From NCBI GenBank assembly GCA_905250055.1, contig CAJNOF010000289.1, forward strand, positions 125,844-147,143: a DNA stretch of 21,300 bases, read 5' to 3'. Under the pieces are notes generated by a model. The model ran no database searches. It worked only from the letters and a program-made list of their open reading frames with translations, and had not been told where the DNA came from. This DNA comes from Rotaria sp. Taxonomy: Eukaryota. Position numbers and translations under genes: made by a program. The stretch's first letter is position 1. Every line of letters begins with the position of its first letter. Shown here in pieces: positions 125-20,283 of the stretch.

Positions 125-1189
125 AAAGACATGTCGTCCATGATTCTTGTGTACATTAATTCTATTTCATTTATTCTTTTTTTCTTTATCTATTATTTCA
201 CTTATTTTTGATTTTATTCAAATCTTTGTTTACGATTAAAAATAAGATTTGATTTATTTGATTGATCTATATTTGTTAAAGTAATTCAATCTTTGATGGA
301 TTTTGACATATATGATTTCTCTCAATTAGGTTGAAGAATCAAAAATATATTATTCTCTTTCGAATAAATTCAATGAAAAAAAAAAAAAAGTAAATCGAGA
401 AACTTTTAATATAAAATAAGACTAGAATTTTAAATATATTATAGTGATACGTTGTAATAGAAAGTCGAATAGAACTATCGAAATCATTGATTTGAATAAG
501 GATAATGATGATGTTAAACAAGAATCTTTTATGCATAATCATTCTCAATCATCAACATTTCATTATAGTTATAATATTGAAATTGAAATAAAGGTCAGTC
601 TATCACATTCAACATCTCAATTGAGATTTTTCATCGGAAATTTAAAATAATTCTTCATAGTTTTATTGATGACTGATTAATATTTCATCTTTTCTTATTT
701 TAGAAGAAAATAATGAATAGTTTCTTTTCATACAGATAATAAAGCTTTTTGAAATTAGCACAATCCTCTAAGGTATTCTTTACGAAAAAAAATAAAGAAG
801 TTTTTTCTTAAAATTATTTTTAATATTTGTCATATGTTGAGTTGTTTTTCATCAATTATGACAAGTACAAATTTTTTCTTTTTGAAAAATTTACGAGTTA
901 AAAATAATGAACGAATTACGTAGTTGCTGTGAAAAATATTTTTTAATGTGTGTTAATTTTCATCAGATACCATCAAATATTATACATACAACAAGTATCA
1001 ATAAAGAATCATCTTTATCAAATGATCATTATATAAATAAGAAAAAATTCAATGTAAGTACTTGAACGTTTATTATTCTCTCGATTGATATATTAATCGA
1101 AAGACGATTTAATAATATCGCGATCAGTTGAAAATATTTTATTTCATTTGTTTTAAAATAATTGATCAATGAATTCTTTCATTTAGTCA

Positions 1190-1771
1190 ATGATAAATAA
1201 ATATTTGATTATCGATTGTATTAAAGGATTAAAAATGTTATCAAATGATTCAATACAATGTATCATAACTTCTCCACCATACAATAAACTTGGTCTACGA
1301 CAAGGTTGTCCATATAATGGACAAATAATTTATGATACATATGATGATAATATGAATGAAATTGAATATCAAAAAAATGGCAATGTCAATTTTTAAATGA
1401 AATAAATCGTATTTTAACACCTTCAGGTTTATTATTTTATATTCATAAAGATCGACGATATTCTCATTGTGATTATCCTCCAGAACAGTTTATATTTCGA
1501 AGTAAATTAAAATTATATCAAACAATTATATGGGATCGAGGTTCAACACCTAATCAAAATAATTCTTATTTTCGACCTAATCATGAAAAAATTTTTTGGT
1601 TAACTAAATCTTCATCTAATATATCATTACCACCTAAATATTATCGTGATTGTCTACCAGAATATTTTAAAGGTGCAATTTGGAAAATTAAACCTGATCG
1701 AAAAAATAAACATCCAGCACCATTTCCATCAATTATTGCTGAAATTTGTATTTTAACAACAACTGATGAAA
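1190..1771 (+). CDS. N4CMT: Exon 1 of an N4-cytosine-type (beta-class) DNA methyltransferase, carrying motif IV SPPY and downstream motifs. There is a 1-nt frame break in the A7 run at 1371-1377.
   Basis: ATG at 1190. Translation is MINKYLIIDCIKGLKMLSNDSIQCIITSPPYN...EYQK[frame break]WQCQFLNEINRILTPSGLLFYIHKDRRY...RPNHEKIFWLTK...HPAPFPSIIAEICILTTTDE. SPPY (1271-1282) sits ahead of FxGxG, which is the beta-class motif order. The exon ends at a GTAAGT donor at 1772. Confidence 0.85.
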
Positions 1772-1961
1772 GTAAGTCAAGATATATATTTACAAAAAAA
1801 AAATCATTTCATGTCATTCAGAAAATATGATTCATTTTTCTCAATTACATTTTCAAATAGATCAGAACAATTTTTAAATATTGTATCCATAAAATCGAAG
1901 AGAAACTAAAGAGAATATTAAAATGTCAAGTTTTATTTCAATTTCATTGATCAGTGATATA

Positions 1962-2466
1962 AATCATTCGATAGAAAAAATTATTCTCTTTCAATCTATA
2001 CAAGGCCAAGCTCGATAGCTTGCTCCGTTTGGTAGCTATAGGTATTTTCCTGAGACCTCCGAAATCGACCAGGTGACGCGGAATCATCCTTAAAAGCATT
2101 ACATTATAGGTAAGCGACCATGCTGAATTCAGTGGTGATTTTTGTTTTTCATTTCAAAGTAACCTGAAATCATTATAAAATAGTTTTCGTAAATCTAGTT
2201 TTTGCTGCTATCTGGCTTAAAGAACACGTATATTGAAAATCTTGATACAGTGATCTCAAATTACTTTGAAATAAACAACAAACATCACCAATGAATTCAG
2301 CGTGGTCGATTACCTATAATGTAATGCTTTTAAGGATGATTTCGCGTCGCCTGGTCGATTTCGGACGTCTCAGGAAAATACCTGTAGCTACCGAACGGAA
2401 CAAGCTATCGAGCTCGGGCTTGTGTAGATCGAAAGAAAATAATTTTTTCTATCGAATGATCTAATT
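1962..2466. mobile_element. Foldback (hairpin) inverted-repeat element inside N4CMT intron 1. The arms are ~175 bp (1962-2137 and 2291-2466) at ~90% identity, separated by a ~150-bp loop.
   Basis: The reverse complement of 2291-2466 aligns base-for-base with 1962-2137, for example ...ccaagctcgatagcttgctccgtttggtagctataggtattttcctgagacctccgaaatcgaccaggtgacgcgg... Confidence 0.8.
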
Positions 2467-2496
2467 GAAGTTCAAAATCCAAAACCTATCTTCAAA

Positions 2497-2640
2497 ATGT
2501 CCAATGAGCTTTCATTCTATTGGTTCATTATTGACCAATGAAATTTTTCCATAGATTTACGTGCCACGGTGTTCGCTTTTTAATGGTGAAAACTGCAGCT
2601 CCATAGCTGCTTCTGTTCTTGAGTTATTCGACTTGCAATC
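2497..2640 (-). repeat. Copy of a dispersed repeat family. The second copy, in opposite orientation, is at ~20785-20905.
   Basis: The reverse complement of 2497-2640 (..gcagttttcaccattaaaaagcgaaca..atttcattggtcaataatgaaccaatagaatgaa..) aligns with 20806-20900 (..gtggttttcaccattcaacagagaaca..atttcattggtccaataagtgaccaatcaagtgaa..). Confidence 0.6.
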
Positions 2641-2713
2641 ACTCGCCTTCTATTTTGAAATAGATAGTAGTTCGAATTGTTGAAAAATAAATAGTTAAAT
2701 TGGTTTTTTTTAG

Positions 2714-2970
2714 AAGATGTCGTATTAGATCCATTTGCTGGATCTGGTACAACACTTATAGCTGCAAATAATTTGAAACGATCTTTTATTGGTTTTGATA
2801 TTAGTAAAAAATATCAAAATATGTTTAAACAACGATTGGCTAATTCAAGTGGTAAGATTCATCTCTGGGAAGAAATGTTTATTGTAGAAAAAATTCTAGA
2901 TCGTAGAATTAAAAATGGTTCTATTGAATATCTTCTCAAATGGAAAGGTTTTAATCATGATCAAAATACC
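2714..2970 (+). CDS. N4CMT: N4CMT exon 2: AdoMet-binding motif I, the end of the methyltransferase domain, and the N-terminal half of the chromodomain.
   Basis: Acceptor tttttttag at 2713. Translation is KDVVLDPFAGSGTTLIAANNLKRSFIGFDISKKYQNMFKQRLANSSGKIHLWEEMFIVEKILDRRIKNGSIEYLLKWKGFNHDQNT, followed by a GTAAGT donor at 2971. It is in phase with exon 1 (phase 1). Confidence 0.85.
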
Positions 2971-3147
2971 GTAAGTTCAATTTTTGTTTTTCTTGTTTTC
3001 TAAACCAACAGTTAAGTTAAAAAAAAAGTATTTGAAATTTCAAACAAAAATAAAACAGTCATTTTGAATATTATGAAACAATGTCATTATTAGGATGTGG
3101 CTCTTTAAGTGGAATAAATGCGAAATTTTTTGTTTTTTTTTATTTAG

Positions 3148-3276
3148 TGGGAGAACGAAACTAATCTGGATTGTCCAGATTTACTTGAACAATTTAAAAT
3201 ATCATTGAAAAAATACAAAAAAAAGAAACATTCATCGTCAAATAAAAGGTCTTTGGTTAAAATGTCATCAATAAAA
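3148..3276 (+). CDS. N4CMT: N4CMT exon 3: C-terminal half of the chromodomain plus a basic tail. A short terminal exon may follow at ~3398-3424, but this is uncertain.
   Basis: Acceptor ttatttag. Translation is WENETNLDCPDLLEQFKISLKKYKKKKHSSSNKRSLVKMSSIK, then a GTAAGC donor. WE..NLDCPDL is the canonical second half of the chromodomain. Confidence 0.8.
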
Positions 3277-4743
3277 GTAAGCCATTCCTACCATTGTATT
3301 TCAATGTATAGATTGTTTCATTGAATCATTGTCACTTATATTAACTATCAAATTTAATTTTACACTTTTTTTCCTTCGGTGATCGAACTGACTTAGATTT
3401 ATATGAGAGATTTATTATATTGAATATGGTTATAGCAGTTCATACTTAGAAAAAGACGAACATCACTCATATCATATAACATTGATGGTATGAAAAATAA
3501 TTCATTAAATCTTAGTCAATGGATATCATTTAGTGAACTTGAACAAAGAGAATTTTTCAATTAAAATCTTCATTTATTCATTTAGTTACGTACACACAAA
3601 AGAAAGATCAGTTCTTTTACTTCCTCAACAGATAGAAGAATGGTAAAAAGATATTGTCAATATATGGATACTTCATCAAGCAACGACGATAATGATTAAT
3701 ATTGATAGAAGATTCTATCCTCCTCATGGATTTTTCAATTGATTTTATAAACATTTTGTTTTTTTTTTGTTGTTCGATATTTTTTTTTTCATATTGTGCA
3801 GATATTCATGTTTGTGGAATAACAAACATTGTTAAATATATTCATTCGATTTTCTTTATTATCAAGGCTTTGGAAATGAAGAAATAGAAAATATTATCCT
3901 ATTCAAATGGAGACATTACCTCTTCCCATAGAGACGACAAACGATTATCATTATATAATATATGAAAATGAACATGTTGAAATACACTAGAATGATCGAT
4001 CATATGAATTTTCTACATAAAAAAAATTCTGATCACAGGATTTTTTAAAAAGAACAGAAAATAAATAAACAAATAGAGTAGTGATTTCTAAAGTTTCATC
4101 TTAAAAAATGATGAATTTCCTGAATGGATATAAGTTCAATGTTAATTTTCAAATTATTTCTTTCGAGCTTTTGACATCATACTTTTTAGTCACTAGTTAC
4201 TCTAAAATGTGAAAGTGACTAATCGCGTCTAACTACGAATCTTGAACTTTTCTCAAATTTTGAAAAACACTTGAAAAACTAATCCAAGATCACAGATATT
4301 TATTCTGTTTTTAATTCTTCATATCTAATCATGATCTACTTTTTCGTTGCAAAATTTTCTTCTTTTTGTATTCTCTGTTCATTTATCTTAAAACAACAAG
4401 AGTAGAAATCACTATCTCATATCAATGAAAACAGCATAGAGATTATGATTTTCACGACATGAGACAATTAGCAACGACGTTAATGACGAAATGCATTAAT
4501 GTTAGACTTCATGACTTGTGAAAATTTCCATGGTATACCGACTATTTCATCAGCTTGTGCAATAACTCAACGTGCGGAACTGTAAAGAAAAATATTAATA
4601 ACATTTATCTACTCCTTGTTTTTTCTTTTTTCCTTTGCATGGGGTAACACGTAACCACATTAGTCATCACACGATTATATTGAAAATGGGTCATAAGATG
4701 AATACGTTCGTAGATTGACTCGTAAGTCATTGATTATTTTCAG

Positions 4744-4902
4744 ATGAAACAAACTACTACCTCTACTTTATTATTATCACCATTCAATGGCAAAACAATT
4801 GTACTCGAACTTGGCCATGAAATAAGTTTCAAAGCTAAACAAGAATTGATCAACTATTTACGAGAACAGCAAGCACATATTTCATATATTTTGACAGCTA
4901 GT
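4744..4902 (+). CDS. PARP4: PARP4-like exon 1 (BRCT domain, part 1).
   Basis: ATG at 4744. Translation is MKQTTTSTLLLSPFNGKTIVLELGHEISFKAKQELINYLREQQAHISYILTAS, then a GTATGT donor. Confidence 0.7.
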
Positions 4903-4955
4903 GTATGTTATCGTTTTATTTCATCGAACATGTGGTTGAAGTTGACTTTTTTTAG

Positions 4956-5345
4956 ACTGATTATGTTTTGGCTACGAGTAATGTAGATAGTTACAAGATA
5001 CGTCGTGCCAAACAGCTTGGTTTACCAGTGATCAATGTTCAATATGTATACGAATGTCGTTCTTTGCCACCTGGTCAAACACCAATTGATATTAACAAAT
5101 TTATTATGAAGTCAGCTGAAGATCAAGAAAATTTTATAAAAACCGGCACTATTTCCATGGGAGGTATTATCAGTTGTTTTAAAAATCATTTAAGATATCC
5201 TTGTTTATTAGAATCTCGAGCAAATGTAACTAAAATCAATAAATTTGATTTGACTAAAATCAAACTATGGAATTCGGACGATGCCGATTTACCTCGTTTC
5301 GATGAGTTGACACATTGTGAGATTGGCAAATGGGCTATTTTCAAA
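4956..5345 (+). CDS. PARP4: PARP4-like exon 2 (rest of the BRCT domain plus linker).
   Basis: Translation is TDYVLATSNVDSYKIRRAKQLGLPVINVQYVYECRSLPPGQ... The 53-nt upstream intron is in phase. The 3' end at the GTAGAT donor is tentative. Confidence 0.6.
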
Positions 5346-8361: not shown

Positions 8362-8439
8362 GTAATAAGATGATATTCTACAGCGTTATTGTGTACTCAA
8401 AAAGTGAGCACACTATAGAATCGGTCAGTGTGTCCATTC

Positions 8440-8960
8440 GGCCGTTTACACGATAACTCCTTCAAAATATCATCCGATTGTGATGAAATTTTGCACACAA
8501 AATTGTCTCATCAATATCTCGGCCGAGTTATTGGAAGGTACTTTTAGATCCTCTAGTACTATGTTATGAAAGTCAATTGAAATGTTATAGTGGAGTATAT
8601 TAAGGCACACAGAAGGGTAAACTGCCTCAGTTTAGTTTCTGGAGTTGAGAAACAGACACCTAAATGGTAGAAGATTTTGTACAGTCAAGGGATCTAGTGG
8701 ATCGCTTTGATCCACTCTACGTATTATATACAATTCGATAGAGAATTTCACGGGCTACAAAATGGTATACAAAACATTAGAAAACAACAAGGCTAAGTCA
8801 TCTATTGCAAAGATACTTATTTAAACTGAAACTGATGACTACTACCTTATGAGTCGATGAAGTGTAAGAGCAGCACTCGCATGTGTAGATCTTGTCGATC
8901 TTTGTTGATTTCATCGTAGCCAGTCTAGTTATTTTTTAAAGTACACATAACACTCGGATT
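8440..8960. mobile_element. Probable decayed mobile-element or foreign insert that accounts for the unusually long (650-nt) PARP4 intron 11. It is GC-richer than its flanks and contains palindromes ctcggccgag and ctcggatttaaatccgag.
   Basis: The intron is ~10x the local norm, and this block differs in composition from the surrounding AT-rich intronic sequence. Confidence 0.3.
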
Positions 8961-9011
8961 TAAATCCGAGGTTTCTACATTTATTTTACTATTCAAATTG
9001 GAACTATTTAG

Positions 9012-9922: not shown

Positions 9923-10141
9923 GTTAGTAAAAAAAAGTTGAGATTTTATGAGTAAACTCATGGGTTGATTAGTGACAGAACAGCACAAAAGTAAAAATTT
10001 ATCTACATGCTTCTGATAATATGGATCAAAAATCTTAATACCACCAAAATTCAAGTATCTACATTCGAGTTGTAGCCAATAATCGATATAGTTTTGTCAT
10101 GCAATCTACATCACTATTGAAACATGTACTTTCTGTTATAG

Positions 10142-10450
10142 GTGTTCGTCTGCTTGAAGTTATGCTGGAACGCGATGTTGACTTACTACCATGCATGGGA
10201 TGGGATGGTGACGCATCATATTTGACTTTAATCAAACAGCAATTAGCCGATGCGCGCATTTCACTCCAATGTGCGTCGATTCAGGACAAAAAAGAAACAG
10301 TTGCTGATATTGAAAAACTTTGTCAAAAAATTTCCTACCGAGCAGGTGGTGATGCAAAATTTGGTACAATGATGACTATCATACGCACATATCGTTATTC
10401 ATTGAATGAATACAATAAAGCAGATGAACTCGAAGACAAAATGCGAAACG
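10142..10450 (+). CDS. PARP4: PARP4-like exon 14.
   Basis: Translation is VRLLEVMLERDVDLLPCMGWDGDASYLTLIKQQLADARISLQ...EDKMRN. GTATGT donor, phase 1. Confidence 0.7.
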
Positions 10451-10537
10451 GTATGTTAATTGAACTAGAACCAAAATATACATTTATTGATTTTGAAAAA
10501 TGAATAGATATACTGACCGAAATGATTAGTGCAACAG

Positions 10538-10608: not shown

Positions 10609-11070
10609 GTGAAAGAAAGGAAAGGAACATTCAAAAAAACTTTGATGTTCGTTCTCTTGCAGTGAATCATTGGCTAAATACGATGGTAAGAAGAAAACTT
10701 GATCATTTTACTTCGGAAAACTTAAACGAGAGAAAGAAAGTGATTCTATAATTTAGACCAAAATGAAAAATTAGGCACACACTATCGACTATCAAAGTAA
10801 TAGACAAAAAGAATCTGATTATTTTGGTTTGTGTATATTATAGCATCTGAGCAATTCGATTAAGACAGCACAGAGTAAAATATAGTTTTTCTATTCAATT
10901 TTTAATCGTAGGTTTGTGTTTCCTCTCTCTATAACATAGTATAATTTGAATAAGAGGACTTGAACATAACAAAAGAATAAAGTATTATTTGAATCGTGAT
11001 GGATCCAAGAAAAATCTTAATAATTGCATAACATATCCACACTACGTATATTGATCTTCGACAGACTTAC

Positions 11071-11227
11071 GAGGGAAGGCCACGAACTGATAAATCGCTT
11101 TTTAAATTTTGGTCATGCCAATTTGTAGTGCTTGTTGAGTTATTAACTGATATAATAACTCAACAAGCTCTACAAATTGGCATAGCTAAAATTTAAAAAG
11201 CGATTTATTAGTTTGTGGCCTTCCCTC
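11071..11227. repeat. Near-perfect 157-bp palindrome (foldback) with arms of ~75 bp and no spacer.
   Basis: gagggaaggccacgaactgataaatcgctttttaaattttggtcatgccaatttgtagtgcttgttgagttattaactgatat | ataataactcaacaagctctacaaattggcatagctaaaatttaaaaagcgatttattagtttgtggccttccctc. Confidence 0.85.
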
Positions 11228-13240
11228 ATTAGCCAATTGCTTATGGAATAAGATATCTGAAAGTGTTCTGTTCTCAATTGTATTGTCGATATTGATATAA
11301 TCTACTCATCGCTATAATGAGATATTCTAATGTGTTTTATTCAAAAAATAAACGAGTTCACTGGAGTAGAAATTCATTGTCATGTTAGGATAAACATTTT
11401 ATCCATTCACTTGAACTTAGCGTCGAGAACAAAAATGAATAACCATTGCATGTTCTCAAGCTTCATATTGCATTTTTGAAACTCTAACAGTAGTAGGAAA
11501 TCGTTTTTGAAAGCTTTGGCGAAGTGATATTAAACGGAATTGCTTGGATGTTTTTTGAAAGAATTATATAGTCTAACTTTACAGCCTGACCTATACTAAG
11601 TAGAACATTTAAGAACATCACAATGAATACTTTGCGAAAAAAGTGAAGATCATTTTCAAAGCAATATTTATATTTCATTTTCATAGATTTGGTTCGTATG
11701 CTTGGAGCTGATTTCAAGGATTTAACAACAGTTGAACAAATAGAAAAGATAAGAAAACTATGCACCATGGTGCGCCAATTCAATGCTACATATAAGAATA
11801 ATGCCGAAAATTGAATATTTCTTTTTCAGTTAGGTGAAGTACCAGATTTTACTGGTGAATTATTTATGCCAACAACAGCAAACCTATCACCAATACCTGA
11901 AAAGCAATTTCCAACTACAGATAACATGAAGATAACGGTGCGTAAGTGAAAGAGGGACCATCATCCACAGCTGCACCCTGACTGAAAGACAAATTTTCAT
12001 ATAAGGATCTTTCTTTCTCAGTAAAAGTATCTTCAAAATACTTCATCCAGTTGAGTTGAAATTGATACCGATGCTAAACCGTTGCGTAGAAAGGGCACAG
12101 TAAATATTAGAGCACAAAAAATTAAATTGCGGGGCGAGTCATAGGTGGTGCCAAAATCCACAAATTTCAGGATAATATTAAATTAAAGGCGGCACTTTTG
12201 GATGGCTTTCTGTTCTCTTAGTACGGAACTCAAACGAAAATGTTTTTTAACGAACGATAGTACTTAGATATAATTATTCATCTGTAGAGTAACACTGTTT
12301 AGTAATTAAAAACAAAATTGAGCTTTATTCAGGGTAATCTTAAACGAAAATCTGATGGTTTTCCAAAAAAACTGCTGTAAATATTTGAAAGAAACAAAGA
12401 ACAGTTTAGTAAGAAAAGGACGACTTCGATTGATATAAATACAAGATATATGTATTTCGAAAGAAGAGACTTCACCGCATGTCTCTATAGAAGACAATTC
12501 ATTTTTGCTTTAGAGAAAAAAAATCAACTTCTGTTAAGAGCTATTAGCATAATAAATCAAATAGGAAAACTTCATCTTAACATTTTTCACATTAAACTGA
12601 GTTGAAAAAATATTTACGACACAAGAAGCATGTCATGTTCAATGGAGTCGAACTGAAAAAAGAGGTCTAACTTTTTAAGTTAAGAAATGTGACCTTTAGT
12701 TACTTATTTTCTTAATCTTTAGGCTTCCTTCATCAAGAATTTGTTTTCAAATAAAACAAATACAAAAATATTAGAAATAATTTCTCAAAACAAAATATGT
12801 AAAGTGTCATATACTACAGAAAACATACTTGCAAACAAAAACAACGATTTGACTAGAATATCAGTCGAATTTCATCAAGACATATTTCTGATAGAGTCTA
12901 CATATTATTTCATGTTTTAGTTCTATGTTGATTCTAAACATTGTATTCATTTTATTTCGCACTACACTTCATTCCCAGGAGGTTCAGTTAAAATTGAGTG
13001 CAAGGAAAGATAGGATTTCTCTTAGTCTCAAGTATTACAGATTTTTTAAGTAGAACTCATTCAAATTTGATTTGCTTCTCCTCATCGGCAAGATTATATG
13101 TCAAGAATATGAAAAATAGGTCTTTTTAGATTGAATTTTTCATGTTAACTGCGAAGTTTTTTTCTCTCTCGGATCACTACCAAATGGTTCCAATACTGAT
13201 TATTGTGAACCCGTTCATTCAGTCCTATTATTTATTCTAG

Positions 13241-13384
<144 letters not shown>

Positions 13385-13398
13385 TAAATATTAATTAG

Positions 13399-13476
13399 GT
13401 ACGGTGATGCGTAGTCTTGGTCAAAATCCAACTGAAGCTGAATTGCAAGATATGATCAATGAAGTTGATGCTGATG
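13399..13476 (+). CDS. Calmodulin-like exon (EF-hand 2, first part).
   Basis: [26 protein letters not shown]. The 61-nt intron is in phase. Confidence 0.85.
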
Positions 13477-13659
13477 GTAAGGTTTTAATCAATCAAATAG
13501 TAAATTTGATTTGGTCTATATTTTGATTACATTAAACAGAAAAGAATTTCTAACCTTTAATTGAACATAGACGCCCGTATCTAATTAAAATCAAATCTCG
13601 AGATATATTTATTCTTGAAGTCATTCGATTTTTTCTCTTGTATATAAAAGAACAAATAG

Positions 13660-13836
<177 letters not shown>

Positions 13837-13884
13837 TAAGGGAAAAAATCTAACATACAAATATGTTTATTCTTTTTTTTAAAG

Positions 13885-13969
13885 TCATGTCATGACAAAT
13901 TTGGGTGAAAAACTCACTGATGAAGAAGTTGATAAAATGATTCGAGAAGCAGATATTGATGAAGGTTAG
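13885..13969 (+). CDS. Calmodulin-like last exon found. The frame stops inside the EF-hand 4 loop (..IREADIDEG*), with TAG at 13967-13969.
   Basis: HVMTNLGEKLTDEEVDKMIREADIDEG followed by a stop. No downstream exon encoding the GQVNYEEF...TAK tail was found. Confidence 0.75.
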
Positions 13970-14084
13970 ACCATTATTTTTATTAAAGAATATTCCTTCG
14001 ACTGAAGGGAGGGTCATATGAAAAAAAAATGATTTTGTGTGTCTGTGTATTTGTGGCAAAGTCAAAAGAACATTCGCTTAAAGA

Positions 14085-14420
14085 TCAATGCTCAGGTTTC
14101 TTCGATATCTAGCTTTCGTCCAATCAGTTTCTTTTGGGTTAGAATTTCAGCTTATCAAGGGTTTTCGATATTGGCCTTTCGGCCGATCAGATCCTTTTAG
14201 CTTGAAGTTCCAGTGAATCAGGGATTTTCGATATCGGGCTTTCGACTAATCAGATTCGTTCAGCTTGGAGTGTCAACCAATTACGGGTTTTTCGATATTG
14301 GAGTTTTGACCAATAAGATTGTGTCTGTTAGAAATTTCAGCTATTGAAACATTTTCCAGAACTTACCTGCCATCCAATCGGATTGTGAGAATCTGGGCTT
14401 TAAGCCGATCAGTATTTTGT
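14085..14420. repeat. Degenerate tandem repeat with a ~63-bp unit and ~5 copies (core tcgatatYggSctttcgRcYaatcag).
   Basis: Successive units read gggttttcgatattggcctttcggccgatcagatcc.. / gggattttcgatatcgggctttcgactaatcagattcg.. / gggtttttcgatattggagttttgaccaataagattg.. Confidence 0.7.
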
Positions 14421-15250
14421 TGGTGCATTCCTCGTTCAACCAGACTTTGTCGGAGGGGTGTCGACAAATGACTAGCCACTCATTTCTGAGGTCAACTGCA
14501 GCTATGCTTGAGAATAGATCGATATGAAATCTAACATGTCTTTTGGGACACTTCATTAGGGTTCCGTTAATGAAAAATTCCAGATTAACACAGTTTCTAT
14601 AGCAAGATCGAGAAAAGAAAGGTGTTAAGTATAGTTCACAATAAAATGTCCTCTTTTCGAAAATTTGTGTCGAGATTTCTTCTATTTTTTCTACGAAAAA
14701 TATACCTGTTGTGTAATGCTTCGCCTCTTCGTTGTTACGATGAACATAGTCCATCAGGTTTAATTTCCTATGAAGCTGCCTATTAGAAAGGAAATGGTAG
14801 AAGCTTCTACATTCTGACTTTCGCCCATCTCACGCTTTTCGAAAATGCATCTGAGTTCTACAAAGAGATTTTCCAATGAGAAATTGCACTTGGGAATGGA
14901 AGCCACTAGCTGTGAATGGCATCTCAAAGGGTACTAACGATTAGTTGCTCTGATGAATTCGCCGAAGGTGTGCTTCAGACCGATCAAGTCGGATCGGCTG
15001 AAACTGTGTTAGAAAGCGGCAATAGGCTGAAAAAGTTTTCTTTAAACTATCTGCGGTTTTGACATCTTTTTCAGCTATTGTACATTTGACTGAAACACAT
15101 CGATATCTTTTGCCTATTTTCATGGGAAATGTTTTGTACGTGTTTGAACCAGAGATGATCATGACTCGGTTTTTTAAATTTTGAACCGAAACGAAACCCA
15201 GAGAAATTCAACTAGGGCTGAACCGAATCGAATTGAAAAAGCTTTTTGTT
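14400..15250. other. GC-richer non-coding block, probably a decayed mobile-element remnant. It overlaps the unrecognisable antisense ORF at 14341-14754.
   Basis: Visibly higher G+C than its flanks. No frame gives a recognisable protein. It contains short internal direct repeats (gaaccgaaacgaaa / gaaccgaatcgaat at 15180-15240). Confidence 0.3.
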
Positions 15251-17330
15251 CTACTGTATATAATTAATGTTATATCATCGTTAAATAGATTTCTTCTTTT
15301 TTTTCTGAGCTACTATCAATAAGAAGCAGGTTGAATAATACTGTGTATGTTTAATAAAGAATAAATATTTATTTTGCATTGAATTCGATGACTAGCTGCC
15401 TTATTTTAGTTCGAAAAATAGGTCAAAATTCAAAAAAATTTGCACATGAAAATACGGAAAACCACAGATAGTTTTTATCTGAATTAGTTCTTAGACCTAT
15501 CTATGGGCAAAGTTTCAGATTCGATTTGCTTAATTTGATTTTTTCAGTAAATACCTAGGAATAGGTCAAAAATGCAGTAAAAGGACCATAACCTTTTGAA
15601 GGAAAAGCCATGGACAGAAACCGTTTTGGACTTTTTACTACCTCTATATACTCTATCAAATGAGATATGAATCATTTTAAATGGAGAGTGAAACTTCGGA
15701 TGGTTCCCTCGTTAGATTTATGCGAATCGAGACTGGTGTGAGGTAAAATCAGTCAGGTGACTCTCATGGAGAAGGATGCGGTGTGGTGCCTTTCCTAGTA
15801 CGAACGTGCAAAACGATTGTTTCCACTTTCTTTGGTTAAAACTGTGTTTTATAGATGAAAACTGTATTAATTAATGAGAAAAATTTTTTATTTCATTATT
15901 GAATATCCAAAAATCGATTTCGTTTTTGGAGACTTATTTCCACTTAAGAAAACTCACTATGCTTTTATGAAATGAATTTCTTCTGAGGAAAGTCGTGTAA
16001 TTACCTGCCTCGTAATTAAAATTAAAATCAAGCCTTATCTCTGACCTTTTTGACTTCACTCATAACATATTTCCTGCCGGAATTATAATTTATAATTGTG
16101 ATAAAATTTTCAGTCGAGGATCAAGTGAGTTGTAGCGACGAGCATTACTTGTCATTATAATGAAGGAAATACTAAATAGCAATTATCTTTACTTATATTG
16201 AAAGGTGAAGAAAATTGCATCGAGCAGTATCGTTCATGAAATGGTTTAGAATAGTAATGTATGACAGAGTAGTAGATATTTGTGTCATCGTGAAATCTGT
16301 ATCAAAAACGATTAGAATTTTGACATTCAGATCGATTAATAAAATACTTTCTTAAAAATTGCTTATGAACTTTTGATAATTGACTCTACTACAATTGCAT
16401 AGATAACAATTTTAGTGAATTTATTCATGTGGCATAAGTAAGCATAATCTTAATGCGTGATATTTAATATAATCAATTTCAAGTGATTATTAGGTACATA
16501 ATCCATTTTAATAAACACATCTTTGAATAAATAATACGTTGCTATTCTGATTGCCACTACTACAAGACTACGATTTCTAATCCTTTACCTTACCACCCAT
16601 AACTGTTCTAAAAGACTCACAGATAAAATAATCACACGACTAGAGCACTAATCTTTCCAATATGTCAGTAGAGGAAAGAATGGAACAACTTGAAAAGTTC
16701 TACTTCATATCTCTTTATCGGCAATGTTGATTAGATTAAGAGGATTTACTTAAATCAGTGGATTTATCTATTGATAGCATATAATACATTTTCACCGTAC
16801 CAAAAGAAAGCTATAGCTCAGAAGAGTTAGTCCTCATCCTCAACTACAAACTCTGTCCATGAAAATCTCATGATGAGGGTACCTTCATAGCAGTTGATAT
16901 ATTTTCTAATCCATCAGTGCAAACTAATACATTAGATAGAAAATTTCGAGCGCTTCAGAATATGTTATTATGCTTTTACAAATATCGTGACGATATATTA
17001 TTTTTTCCAGAGGTATATATGGATTAATCTTATATCGAATTGTTTTTTGACATATGAGATTTGTAGATTGACATGATGTAGACATTTAATTTAGTACTGA
17101 AATATTTGTTGTGATGTTTTATAGTTTATCGCAGCTGCAGTCAGCGAAGAAGAGTAATTAATTTGGTGTAACTGTTTGCTTTCTTTTATCAAAAATGAAT
17201 AGCTTATTTGTCACTAATCTAGACAACAGTATTTTGTAGCTACTGTTGAAGTTTATTTTTAGGGATAAAACTATCAGAATTGCGATCGAAAACAAGTGGT
17301 TTGAAACAAGAGTCATTAGAGGAATATGAA

Positions 17331-17580
17331 ATGGCAGATTCATACGATGACAAGGGCAAAGACACCGACGATTCATCTTCGCTTCGGTTTATACACACCT
17401 GTTGGCCTTTGTCGACGAGTCATGATTTGCCCACTTCGAAGATAATTCTAGGTAATGAAAAGGAACGCTTGACAGAATCAAATTTTCTTAAGTTACTTTC
17501 GAAATCAGAAGGCCAACCAATGCCAATGTCTACTGTTGATAAGAAACTGAAAAAAAAGAAGATGAAAGAAAGAGGTACAG
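17331..17580 (+). CDS. HSP70 substrate-binding-domain-like gene, exon 1 (low-complexity acidic and basic N-terminus).
   Basis: First in-frame ATG at 17331. Translation is MADSYDDKGKDTDDSSSLRFIHTCWPLSTSHDLPTSKIILGNEKERLTESNFLKLLSKSEGQPMPMSTVDKKLKKKKMKERGT. GTAAGA donor. Confidence 0.55.
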
Positions 17581-17627
17581 GTAAGAACGCTATTAGAATC
17601 AAGTTCATTTCATTATCTCCGTTATAG

Positions 17628-17706
17628 GATCAGTGCCTGCACCACCATCAGGGCCACTACTAGGACCGCCTCAACAACAACCAAAACCTAGCACCAAGAT
17701 GCCAAT
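17628..17706 (+). CDS. HSP70-SBD-like gene, exon 2 (Pro/Gln-rich).
   Basis: GSVPAPPSGPLLGPPQQQPKPSTKMP. 47-nt intron, phases consistent. Confidence 0.55.
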
Positions 17707-17757
17707 GTATGTATTTTCCGGACTCTGTGTCATGTAGTCATTGATGTTTTCTGTTAG

Positions 17758-17852
17758 GATGGCAGGTTTGACATTACCATGCAATCAGCCATCAGTACAA
17801 ATATCTGAAGCTGCAGCATCGTCATCTTGTATCGATGATCTCAAGACTACAA
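17758..17852 (+). CDS. HSP70-SBD-like gene, exon 3.
   Basis: MMAGLTLPCNQPSVQISEAAASSSCIDDLKTT. GTAAGA donor. Confidence 0.55.
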
Positions 17853-18129
17853 GTAAGATTTGAATTTCCGCCTATTAATGTTCATGGTAATTCCTAACTT
17901 CAACTAGATTTGAGCTATAATACTTCGACTTCTTGCGCAAATAATAGGTTGTTCTTATACGATCAAGAGTTTCGAATGTTTTACACCTATTTCCGAGGAG
18001 GAAGCAGTAATTTATGAGTTTGATGAATTTGATTAAATTTGAGTGAGTATAGTAAGCTAAATTCAAGTCACTGAGACTCACTGGAGTTAACGTTAAACAT
18101 TCTACGTTCTGATTTGATGTCCATTTTAG

Positions 18130-18333
18130 GTCTTGAATTGGCAGCACCATTCGATTCATCTGATCATGTAATTGATCCTTCTGCATTGACTTCTCTTTCT
18201 TTACCTGAACCACGATCACCAGACATATCATATCGAACAATATCACTATCAAAAGAAGCGGCAAAATTTGCATTCCCCGATAGTGGCAACTGTATGCAAT
18301 CTCCAATAGCATCAAAACCGAAGCCAAGTGTTA
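18130..18333 (+). CDS. HSP70-SBD-like gene, exon 4.
   Basis: SLELAAPFDSSDHVIDPSALTSLSLPEPRSPDISYRTISLSKEAAKFAFPDSGNCMQSPIASKPKPSV. GTAAGT donor. Confidence 0.6.
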
Positions 18334-18390
18334 GTAAGTTAGAATCATACAAATTTCTCGATTATTTTAATTAATGATCTTTGAACATAG

Positions 18391-18661
18391 AAACACCTTC
18401 ACGAGTTTTGTCAAAGAGTGGTAAACATGGTAGCATGCGAGTACTTGTCAGTGAACCACAAAGTTCAGACGATGATACAATGTATGAAATACTACCAATG
18501 GATTCGACATATTTCTCTCCAGATGAAACTGTACGATGTGATGAGATGTTTAACAAAATACGTGTGCCAATGGAAAAACGAGAAGATGATATGAGAAAGT
18601 TTACAAGTGAAAGCGCAAAATCAAAATCCACGATTCATAAAAGGGCAAGACAATCAGAAAT
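18391..18661 (+). CDS. HSP70-SBD-like gene, exon 5.
   Basis: KTPSRVLSKSGKHGSMRVLVSEPQSSDDDTMYEILPMDSTYFSPDETVRCDEMFNKIRVPMEKREDDMRKFTSESAKSKSTIHKRARQSE. GTAAGT donor. Confidence 0.6.
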
Positions 18662-18753
18662 GTAAGTTTTGACAAAGGTGTGCGATGATTAATTATTAAT
18701 CGTCATTCTCGATCGATGGCTTTGTTTTTAATGAGAATTAAATGAAAATTTAG

Positions 18754-19000
18754 GTCTCGATCAAGAATGACACATAGTTCAACATCCGACGCATCTGTCT
18801 GTAATCTACTTCTTCTGGATGTCTGCCCACTTAGTCTAGGCATCGAAGATATTCACGGTAACATGCATACACTCATTCGTCGTAATACAATTATTCCAAC
18901 GCGAACTGAACTTTATCCAATATTCACAAATGCTTATGCCTATCAGACAACAGCTACCATTCGCATATTTGAAGGTGAACATAATTTCACAAAATACAAT
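18754..19000 (+). CDS. HSP70-SBD-like gene, exon 6 (first half of the HSP70 SBD-beta).
   Basis: ..[72 protein letters not shown] parallels HSP70 [63 protein letters not shown]. Confidence 0.8.
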
Positions 19001-19053
19001 GTACGTAGTGTTCTAACTTCATAAATTTTATTTTCTAGCCTTCTCTATTGTAG

Positions 19054-19222
19054 ACATTATTGGGCGAGTTTAGTCTTTCCGGCCTAACAAGCAACTTCGC
19101 TCCTCAGACACTCGAAATAGCTATTCGTATGGATATCGATGCTAATGGGATACTTCGTGTCGATGCTGAAGAAGCGCGTTCGGGCGTGAAAGCTTCATTT
19201 ACTCTTGAGTCCAATCAGCAAA
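19054..19222 (+). CDS. HSP70-SBD-like gene, exon 7 (second half of SBD-beta).
   Basis: [56 protein letters not shown] parallels [55 protein letters not shown]. Confidence 0.75.
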
Positions 19223-19280
19223 GTTCTACAATTTCTTAGATGTTTCATATCATCATTAAATGCCGTTTATATTTATCTAG

Positions 19281-19352
19281 GATTGAACAAAGATGATATT
19301 GAGCGACATATTACCTATGTAGAAAGTGATACAAATTTTGCAGCTAAATCTG
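19281..19352 (+). CDS. HSP70-SBD-like gene, exon 8 (start of the lid region).
   Basis: RLNKDDIERHITYVESDTNFAAKS parallels HSP70 [22 protein letters not shown]. 58-nt intron, GTTAGT donor. Confidence 0.7.
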
Positions 19353-19400
19353 GTTAGTGTGAAAAAAGGATAAATGATATTCAATTATTGTTCTTTTGTA

Positions 19401-20283
19401 GTTTATGATCGAAAACCCAATGATCCATTGTACTTAGTTCGTACTATGTCATCTGTTCATAGTTCGTTTTTCCACTTTTTCTGTCTTTTCTTAGCTCGAT
19501 GGTCAAATTACACCCGTTACACGTAACTTTTCAGCTGAATTTGTTACCTCATTCGGTAATTTGTCCTTTGTTGTTGTTTGAAAGATATACTGCAATAGTA
19601 TATGAATTCAGGTCAAATAACTGGTGCTCCACTTCTCATTAAACTGAAAAATGTTCGATCTTCAAGAACAATGATTGAAAAGCTCATCAAACTTCAATCC
19701 GAGGTAATATCATTTTCAAAGTTTATTATCGATTCATTGCTTTGCATGTGATTCGAATATAGGACGGTTCATTTACGTTGAATAAAGATTTAGCTGATAT
19801 ACTTCATGTCAATGTTGATACTTTCAATGGTCTAGAACAATATTTATGCGAACAAGGTTTTAAATCACTCGGTAAGATCGTATGATTCATTACAGAGACA
19901 TGAACTTTAATTTTCGTAGCTTTGAACATACAAAACGAAATTGTTCGTTTAATCGGTACAGGCGTCATTCTTCTTTGGCTCGTTCTTCAAATACAAGATT
20001 TACAACAAAATACGTGTCAATTTTTATTTAACATTGAACACATCAAAGTGAATTTTTTTTCCGATCTTTTCAATTTACATCCTACTCTCTCTATGTTGCT
20101 AAGGTTTATCTCTACAACCATTTACCTACTAACATGAGCGAACAAATTAACAAAGCGATCGAATTCTATCAACAAACAAGTCAACGTAATGGTATCTATT
20201 GTAAACAATTAGAATTGAGCGATTCATCGTGGGACATGTTTATTCAACGTATAGTTATCGGCATCGATCATGTCAATAACTAA
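19401..20283 (+). CDS. HSP70-SBD-like gene, 3' exons. Boundaries are tentative: 19401-19435, 19494-19554, 19612-19703, 19763-19871, 19920-~20097, and ~20133-20283, with TAA at 20281-20283.
   Basis: A chain of in-phase exons separated by 48-59-nt GT-AG introns (LDGQITPVTRNFSAEFVTSF / GQITGAPLLIKLKNVRSSRTMIEKLIKLQSE / DGSFTLNKDLADILHVNVDTFNGLEQYLCEQGFKSL / ...EQINKAIEFYQQTSQRNGIYCKQLELSDSSWDMFIQRIVIGIDHVNN*). A TACTAAC branch point precedes the last acceptor. Confidence 0.4.

Follow-up and report, generated by a model that had tools for sequence, protein, structure and literature searches.

In the window, by which we mean the whole stretch of 21,300 nt of Rotaria sp. DNA analyzed here, a gene for the DNA methyltransferase N4CMT carries a frame break inside an A7 homopolymer, and this break probably reflects a recent, genuine slippage mutation that would have turned the copy into a null allele or a very young pseudogene. 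As read from the alignment of related loci, the lesion is shown to be a gain of two A's (A5 to A7) and not the loss of one A from an A8.

The gene and its reading frame

The gene lies on the forward strand (~373-3699) and is a bdelloid-rotifer N4CMT, namely a bacterial-type N4-cytosine DNA methyltransferase fused to an HP1-type chromodomain. N4CMT is a horizontally acquired gene of bacterial origin. It was described in bdelloid rotifers by Rodriguez et al. (2022, Nat Commun, PMC8885841) and reported there from every sequenced bdelloid family, and structures of the A. vaga enzyme (8S9M/8S9N/8S9O) were published by Zhou et al. (2023, JBC, PMC10406627). The original prediction had called the gene a methyltransferase, and this identity was borne out once the protein had been conceptually repaired: it matched the crystal chains of A. 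vaga N4CMT (8S9M/8S9N) with E = 1e-119, as well as HP1/CBX chromodomain chains (CBX5, CBX1 and CBX3) with E = 1e-24 to 1e-18. In Pfam, the repaired protein matched N6_N4_Mtase (PF01555) with 140 bits over profile positions 1-220 of 221, followed on its C-terminal side by Chromo (PF00385) with 65 bits. Its motifs come in the beta-class order, with motif IV (SPPY) placed N-terminal to the SAM-binding motif I (DPFAGSG, of the FxGxG form). The closest match in the protein database, among more than 6000, was the N4CMT of R. sordida at 89% identity, and the other annotated N4CMT matches came from further Rotaria (66-74%) and from Adineta (67-68%). Within the methyltransferase core, identity is ~69% to A. 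vaga and 89% to R. sordida.

The window DNA is AT-rich (23-40% GC) and eukaryotic, with short GT-AG introns. The exons were read from the sequence and then verified by tblastn with the R. sordida protein, in which the exon breaks of the window and of the R. sordida locus fell at identical protein positions, with GT-AG borders (Table 1).

Table 1. Features of the N4CMT gene in the window.
Feature	Position	Strand	Basis or remark
Putative mini-exon 1, ATG followed by A14	373..389	+	R. sordida model has ATG + A10; model doubtful
Exon 2, annotated N-terminal extension, weakly constrained in the window/R. sordida lineage	445..593	+	tblastn with R. sordida protein
Exon 3, annotated N-terminal extension	967..1053	+	Sequence reading, tblastn
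Exon 4, with bacterial-type N-terminus MINKY (ATG 1190), SPPY (1271-1282) and central methyltransferase domain	1187..1771	+	Homology, Pfam
A7 homopolymer with the frame break	1371..1377	+	A5 in the R. sordida orthologue; CAACAA in other Rotaria
Formal X_XXY_YYZ heptamer A_AAA_AAT, zero frame	1372..1378	+	By-product of the A expansion
Premature TAA in the upstream frame, 6 codons past the run, with 375 nt left to the exon 4 donor	1394..1396	+	Frame translation
Foldback inside intron 4	1960..2463	.	Inverted arms; no counterpart in the R. sordida intron
Exon 5, with DPFAGSG (2728-2748), end of the methyltransferase domain and start of the chromodomain (2878)	2714..2970	+	Homology, Pfam
Exon 6, with the remaining chromodomain (to ~3198) and a Lys-rich tail with an in-frame A8 (3217-3224)	3148..3276	+	tblastn, Pfam
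Last exon, ending ...SSSNDDND with TAA 3697-3699, as the R. sordida protein does	3586..3699	+	tblastn

The first N4CMT exon was called variable and omitted by Rodriguez et al. (2022, PMC8885841), and the A14 of the window (376-389) is out of frame with the R. sordida mini-exon model, which has A10 there. The ATG used by other Rotaria is a GTG in both the window and R. sordida, and the R. sordida model borrows the mini-exon instead. In the N-terminal extension, dN/dS between the window and R. sordida is ~2.2 (22.5 nonsynonymous vs 2.5 synonymous changes), compared to ~0.4 in other pairs. Translation in both may start at MINKY (1190), and the extension is perhaps no longer coding. The A14 vs A10 difference was considered as a second lesion and was not counted as such, as the mini-exon model is doubtful and the extension is unconstrained here.

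The frame break itself lies in exon 4, and direct reading confirmed the original prediction both in the position of the A7 run (1371-1377) in the methyltransferase and in the course of the two frames around it. Starting from ATG 1190 or ATG 1235, the upstream frame reads ...NEIEYQKNGNVNF and ends at the TAA of 1394-1396, while the conserved continuation starts at TGG 1378 and reads WQCQFLNEINRILTPSGLLFY...TTTDE (also given as WQCQFLNEINRIL...) to the end of exon 4, with no stop up to the donor at 1772. With the A7 shift and the stop that follows it, the window copy lacks an uninterrupted reading frame for the full enzyme. The heptamer A_AAA_AAT, which had been singled out as a slippery site, is a formally valid X_XXY_YYZ, its zero-frame codons being CAA (1370-72), AAA (1373-75) and AAT (1376-78).

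Direction of the lesion and its predicted consequences

In all 17 aligned orthologous proteins, exactly one residue separates the Q from the W (EYQ-K/Q/R/N-WQ), and the Y-Q-x-W spacing is kept in bacterial and phage homologues as well (Data S1, PMC8885841). The same holds for the DNA of six loci, one from R. sordida, three from Rotaria sp. Silwood1, one from R. socialis and one from a metagenome contig. The R. sordida locus (L001), which is 87.5% identical to the window across exons and introns, reads TATC-AAAAA-TGG, that is, an A5 (CAA AAA TGG), and the two extra A's of the window are the sole gap between the two exon 4 sequences. The five further loci read TA(T/C)CAACAATGG or TATAAACGGTGG, always with 3 nt between Q and W. 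Since the in-frame state in every relative is either A5 or CAACAA, with one codon between Q and W, the lesion reads as a 2-nt gain. A degenerate-pattern scan of metagenomes for N4CMT with a Q-W gap of 1-6 nt returned one contig (L007), which is in frame and reads CAA CAA TGG.

These comparisons reverse the direction given in the original prediction, which had described a 1-nt break, one A short of an A8, whereas the change leads from the A5 of R. sordida to the A7 of the window. It is correct that one added A would yield an uninterrupted EYQKKWQCQF; such an A8, however, does not represent the conserved state, which in orthologues as in bacterial and phage homologues is Y-Q-x-W. A true A8 would thus be an unprecedented Lys insertion, and a true A5 would need a +2 error in the consensus.

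Two ways in which the frame might be rescued within the gene were rejected. A compensating indel was dismissed, the +2 being the only gap in exon 4 relative to R. sordida, and so was a cryptic intron, given that the only nearby GT...AG (1385-1426, 42 nt) removes the conserved CQFLNEINRILTPS and does not restore the frame.

We propose that a C-to-A change in the R. sordida/window lineage turned CAA CAA TGG into CAA AAA TGG and so created an A5 tract, which in the window copy would then have been extended to A7 by replication slippage, with a gain of two A's. Translation would leave the conserved frame past ...EYQK and stop six codons on, and the resulting product of ~68 aa would keep SPPY and be devoid of the dimer interface, SAM-binding motif I and the chromodomain, making the copy a null. 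This 68-aa sequence matched no Pfam family. It is also predicted to be without the dimer 'tenon' region and without His253 and Asp301 (A. vaga numbering), the equivalents of which lie downstream of the break in the alignment to 8S9M/8S9N; both are SAM-contacting residues of the A. vaga enzyme (PMC10406627). The transcript would be non-functional or degraded by nonsense-mediated decay, the latter being likely with 375 nt between the premature stop and the next exon junction downstream. No in-frame ATG is left in the remainder of exon 4, and re-initiation could therefore not restore a methyltransferase. Loss of this copy is presumably tolerated thanks to another, functional copy in the degenerate-tetraploid, asexual genome, which would imply that an intact partner exists; this partner is assumed here.

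State of the rest of the gene and rival explanations

When the two A's are removed, the coding sequence is open from exon 2 to the stop shared with R. sordida (...DDND). All splice sites and exon boundaries are kept, and in ~1.3 kb of coding sequence we found no further disabling lesion beyond the +2. Relative to R. sordida, the exons carry 1.5 indels per kb, compared to 19.8 per kb in the aligned non-coding DNA, a 13-fold difference, and the exon indels are two, the +2 and a 12-nt gap in the tail that keeps the frame. For the methyltransferase domain, the pairwise Nei-Gojobori comparison with R. sordida gave dS = 0.13 and dN/dS = 0.37, with dN/dS among intact Rotaria orthologues ranging from 0.13 to 0.41. 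When substitutions were polarized with two outgroups, 24 nonsynonymous and 11 synonymous changes fell on the window branch, and 23 and 8, respectively, on the R. sordida branch (Fisher p = 0.79). Changes at sites with at least 90% conservation among the other orthologues number 5 in the window, as against 8 in the A. vaga enzyme, which is biochemically active, and 0 to 14 across the intact orthologues. Three of the window's five are private to it, namely P to S, S to L, and, in FYNHKD, N to I. We found no asymmetry in either the branch counts or the conserved-site changes and therefore rejected the idea that constraint had been relaxed in the window lineage. With the rest of the gene intact, the lesion would therefore have to be very recent, and the substitution pattern argues that purifying selection acted on the window copy until very recently, or still acts on it.

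The same intactness bears on the chief rival of this reading, as an equally selected appearance is expected of an intact gene whose homopolymer was miscalled. A run-length error of the assembly in an intact gene, with a true A8 under-called by one or a true A5 over-called by two, is a possible, if doubtful, explanation. It draws on the lesion falling exactly in a homopolymer, on the functional look of everything else (open coding sequence, intact splice sites, dN/dS of 0.37 and symmetric branch changes), and on N4CMT having been reported in every sequenced bdelloid family (PMC8885841). An exact-protein look-up of two window ORFs in the protein/contig collection returned no match that would provide independent sequence of the same organism, which leaves room for an error, and protein searches with the window sequence gave no match above 92% identity, the best for a neighboring exon being at most 92%. 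Furthermore, just one other homopolymer differs greatly in length from R. sordida, the A14 vs A10 at 376-389, and it is also in N4CMT; this would fit either real slippage or local miscalling. Yet each route to an artefact asks for something unusual. If the run were truly A8, a real Lys would have been inserted, in addition to the miscall, where the spacing never varies from phage and bacteria to rotifers; if it were truly A5, the consensus would be wrong by +2 in a 5-mer, an unlikely error on any platform. Nor was there any sign of systematic homopolymer miscalling in the window: in a symmetric comparison of A/T runs of at least 6 nt, 18 of 25 were equal in length to their counterparts in relatives, and the remainder, 3 longer and 4 shorter, showed no directional bias. 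(A first comparison, in which window runs appeared shorter, was discarded as an ascertainment artefact, the runs having been defined in the other sequence; no such trend appeared in the symmetric test.) About 12 other runs of at least 6 nt in confident exons are in frame, including the A8 at 3217-3224 in N4CMT itself and an A8 at 17550-17557, and two large exons of the neighboring PARP4-like gene match their counterparts in a related contig in ORF length (304 aa and 203 aa). The neighboring PARP4-like, calmodulin and Hsp70-like exons showed no frame breaks, and a search for adjacent HSPs in different frames gave no unambiguous case besides N4CMT, the others lying at apparent intron-exon junctions. 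In our view, a real +2 is more parsimonious than either artefact route, the over-called A5 or the under-called A8. As regards error versus pseudogene, the data favor what would be a genuine and very recent lesion, and we infer that the two A's are present in the organism and not merely in its assembly.

Other readings differ in what they make of the copy itself. It is very improbable that the window holds a long-inactive N4CMT duplicate decaying neutrally, like a copy of Rotaria sp. Silwood1 (L008). Such decayed copies do occur in Rotaria genomes, the downstream synteny with the R. sordida locus stops at ~4442, intron 4 contains a foldback insertion, and the three private changes are non-conservative and hit otherwise invariant sites; against this stand the single disabling lesion in ~1.3 kb, the retention of all splice sites, a dN/dS that is not near 1 together with symmetric branch counts, the 13-fold depletion of exon indels, and the finding that L008, at comparable divergence, has at least four lesions in exon 4 alone. 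Improbable, too, is a very recent natural knock-out of the 4mC writer, in which the species would have no N4CMT locus besides the window copy and this copy would be truly dead, a reading which would fit the unusual load of lineage-specific insertions (the intron 4 foldback and ~5 kb in introns and spacers of the neighboring genes). Finally, that the full-length enzyme is made from the A7 allele after all, by a -1 frameshift on A_AAA_AAT (...EYQKN-WQCQF...) or by transcriptional slippage (+1 A or -2), seems to us hardly credible. The heptamer is formally valid and in the correct phase, the shift lands on TGG, the zero-frame stop comes close behind, and no decay is seen in the gene downstream. 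However, the heptamer arises automatically once AA enters CAA AAA TGG and so provides no independent signal, chance alone would readily place a zero-frame stop this close in out-of-frame sequence of ~24% GC, the -1 product (...QKN-WQC...) has an extra residue unseen in any family member, and an A7 is short for efficient Pol II slippage. None of the orthologues has a two-frame layout, the 17 proteins and six DNA loci all being single-frame with one codon fewer, and because all of them are single ORFs at this point, there is no selection for a frameshift site. The lack of a pseudoknot, which the original prediction had already remarked on, was upheld for the 122 nt downstream (1379-1500): their minimum free energy is -13 kcal/mol, compared to a shuffle mean of -14.8 (z = +0.59), with 144 of 200 dinucleotide shuffles folding at least as well, and Rfam gave no match over the window. 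Error, pseudogene and -1 frameshift had thus rightly been set out as the three candidates, and it is the last of these that has lost its footing, with neither a downstream structure nor a conserved two-frame layout to sustain it.

Locus context and comparison with known systems

Intron 4 measures 942 bp in the window and 576 bp in R. sordida, and the two share only the last ~46 bp before the acceptor. Its foldback spans 504 bp, with 229-nt arms that are 88% complementary and a 46-nt loop, and it is GC-richer than its surroundings; it is possibly an insertion of a MITE or a foldback transposon and could form a long hairpin in the pre-mRNA. Downstream of the gene, synteny breaks at ~4442-4469. 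To the left of this point, the R. sordida N4CMT locus (L001) is the collinear counterpart of the window; from 4469 on, the collinear counterparts are two ENA metagenome contigs (L002 and L003) that carry the PARP4-like, calmodulin and Hsp70-like genes and have no N4CMT upstream. In L002 the upstream position is taken by a TIR-domain ORF, and L001 and L002 have no sequence in common. Identity of the window to these contigs is ~90% for L003 and ~83% for L002.

The neighboring genes appear intact, and comprise a multi-exon PARP4-like gene (vault PARP, with PARP, VIT and vWA domains; 4744-~11950), a calmodulin gene (13250-14000) and an Hsp70-family gene (~17250-20280). Four blocks of the window (8390-8981, 11049-11663, 11980-13226 and 14125-16893), ~5.2 kb together, are absent from both L003 and L002; an inverted repeat with 80-nt arms (11066-11232) lies inside one of them, and Pfam searches with the ORFs within the blocks gave no match. 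Their appearance suggests insertions specific to the lineage, placed in introns and spacers, which would be unusual for the transposon-poor genomes of bdelloids. In L003 (ENA contig ctg89718_2x_l, low-coverage), the exon matching window ORF 10099-10503 changes frame at ~3607-3617, where it has an A7 and the window an A6; the extra A is probably a homopolymer error or a lesion in L003 and not in the window. At its other end, the window begins with two copies of a 50-nt tandem repeat (ATTTGTCTTATTTTTCGGTGCTC...; 1-130), apparently with a partial third copy next to them.

To our knowledge, N4CMT is the only metazoan 4mC DNA methyltransferase. Its disruption in bdelloids was described as not possible, the tools for genetic manipulation having yet to be developed (Rodriguez et al., 2022, PMC8885841). 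As a possible null allele, a copy with a natural frameshift has modest interest. Should the window copy be the sole N4CMT locus of its species and dead, it would offer a natural experiment on the need for 4mC in transposon silencing, a question that genetics cannot address in bdelloids. In itself, a frameshift at one homopolymer is an ordinary event when it affects one of several copies of a gene and the genome is asexual and degenerate-tetraploid, and it involves no new mechanism; the gene family is already known, and the frameshifted copy adds one more member to it and is of low general interest. A practical consequence concerns annotation, as gene predictors may skip the window copy or bridge the break with a fake intron.

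The published N4CMT copies, namely the allelic pair of A. vaga and the orthologues of Adineta, Rotaria and habrotrochids, are intact, whereas the window copy is truncated after motif IV. The main text and part of the supplements of PMC8885841 make no mention of a frameshifted or pseudogene copy.

With regard to known recoding sites, the window resembles the programmed -1 sites of retroviral gag-pol and of cellular PEG10 in having a zero-frame X_XXY_YYZ heptamer followed by an early zero-frame stop. Unlike those sites, it has no downstream stem-loop or pseudoknot, no conservation and no retroelement ancestry, and the resemblance is a side effect of the homopolymer.

A closer comparison is provided by Rotaria sp. 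Silwood1, whose assemblies contain at least three distinct N4CMT loci (L004, L009 and L008), 5.5-7.8% apart in exon 4. One of these, L008 (GCA_905332315.1), is truly decayed, with lesions that include the same EYQ-x-W neighborhood: a 10-nt deletion and a TGG-to-TGA change sit right at the EYQ-x-W site, and further frameshifts occur besides. For its region 3630-5051, the annotation gives a 235-aa 'chromodomain' protein (P0028), and P0105 is a model of the same sort. Exon 4 of L008 diverges from intact relatives by 5.5-7.8%, and that of the window from R. sordida by 5.9%; in this exon, L008 has at least four lesions (the 10-nt deletion, the TGG-to-TGA change and two +1 insertions), compared to one in the window. 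With a single lesion set against many, the window copy is either far younger as a pseudogene than L008, or no pseudogene at all.
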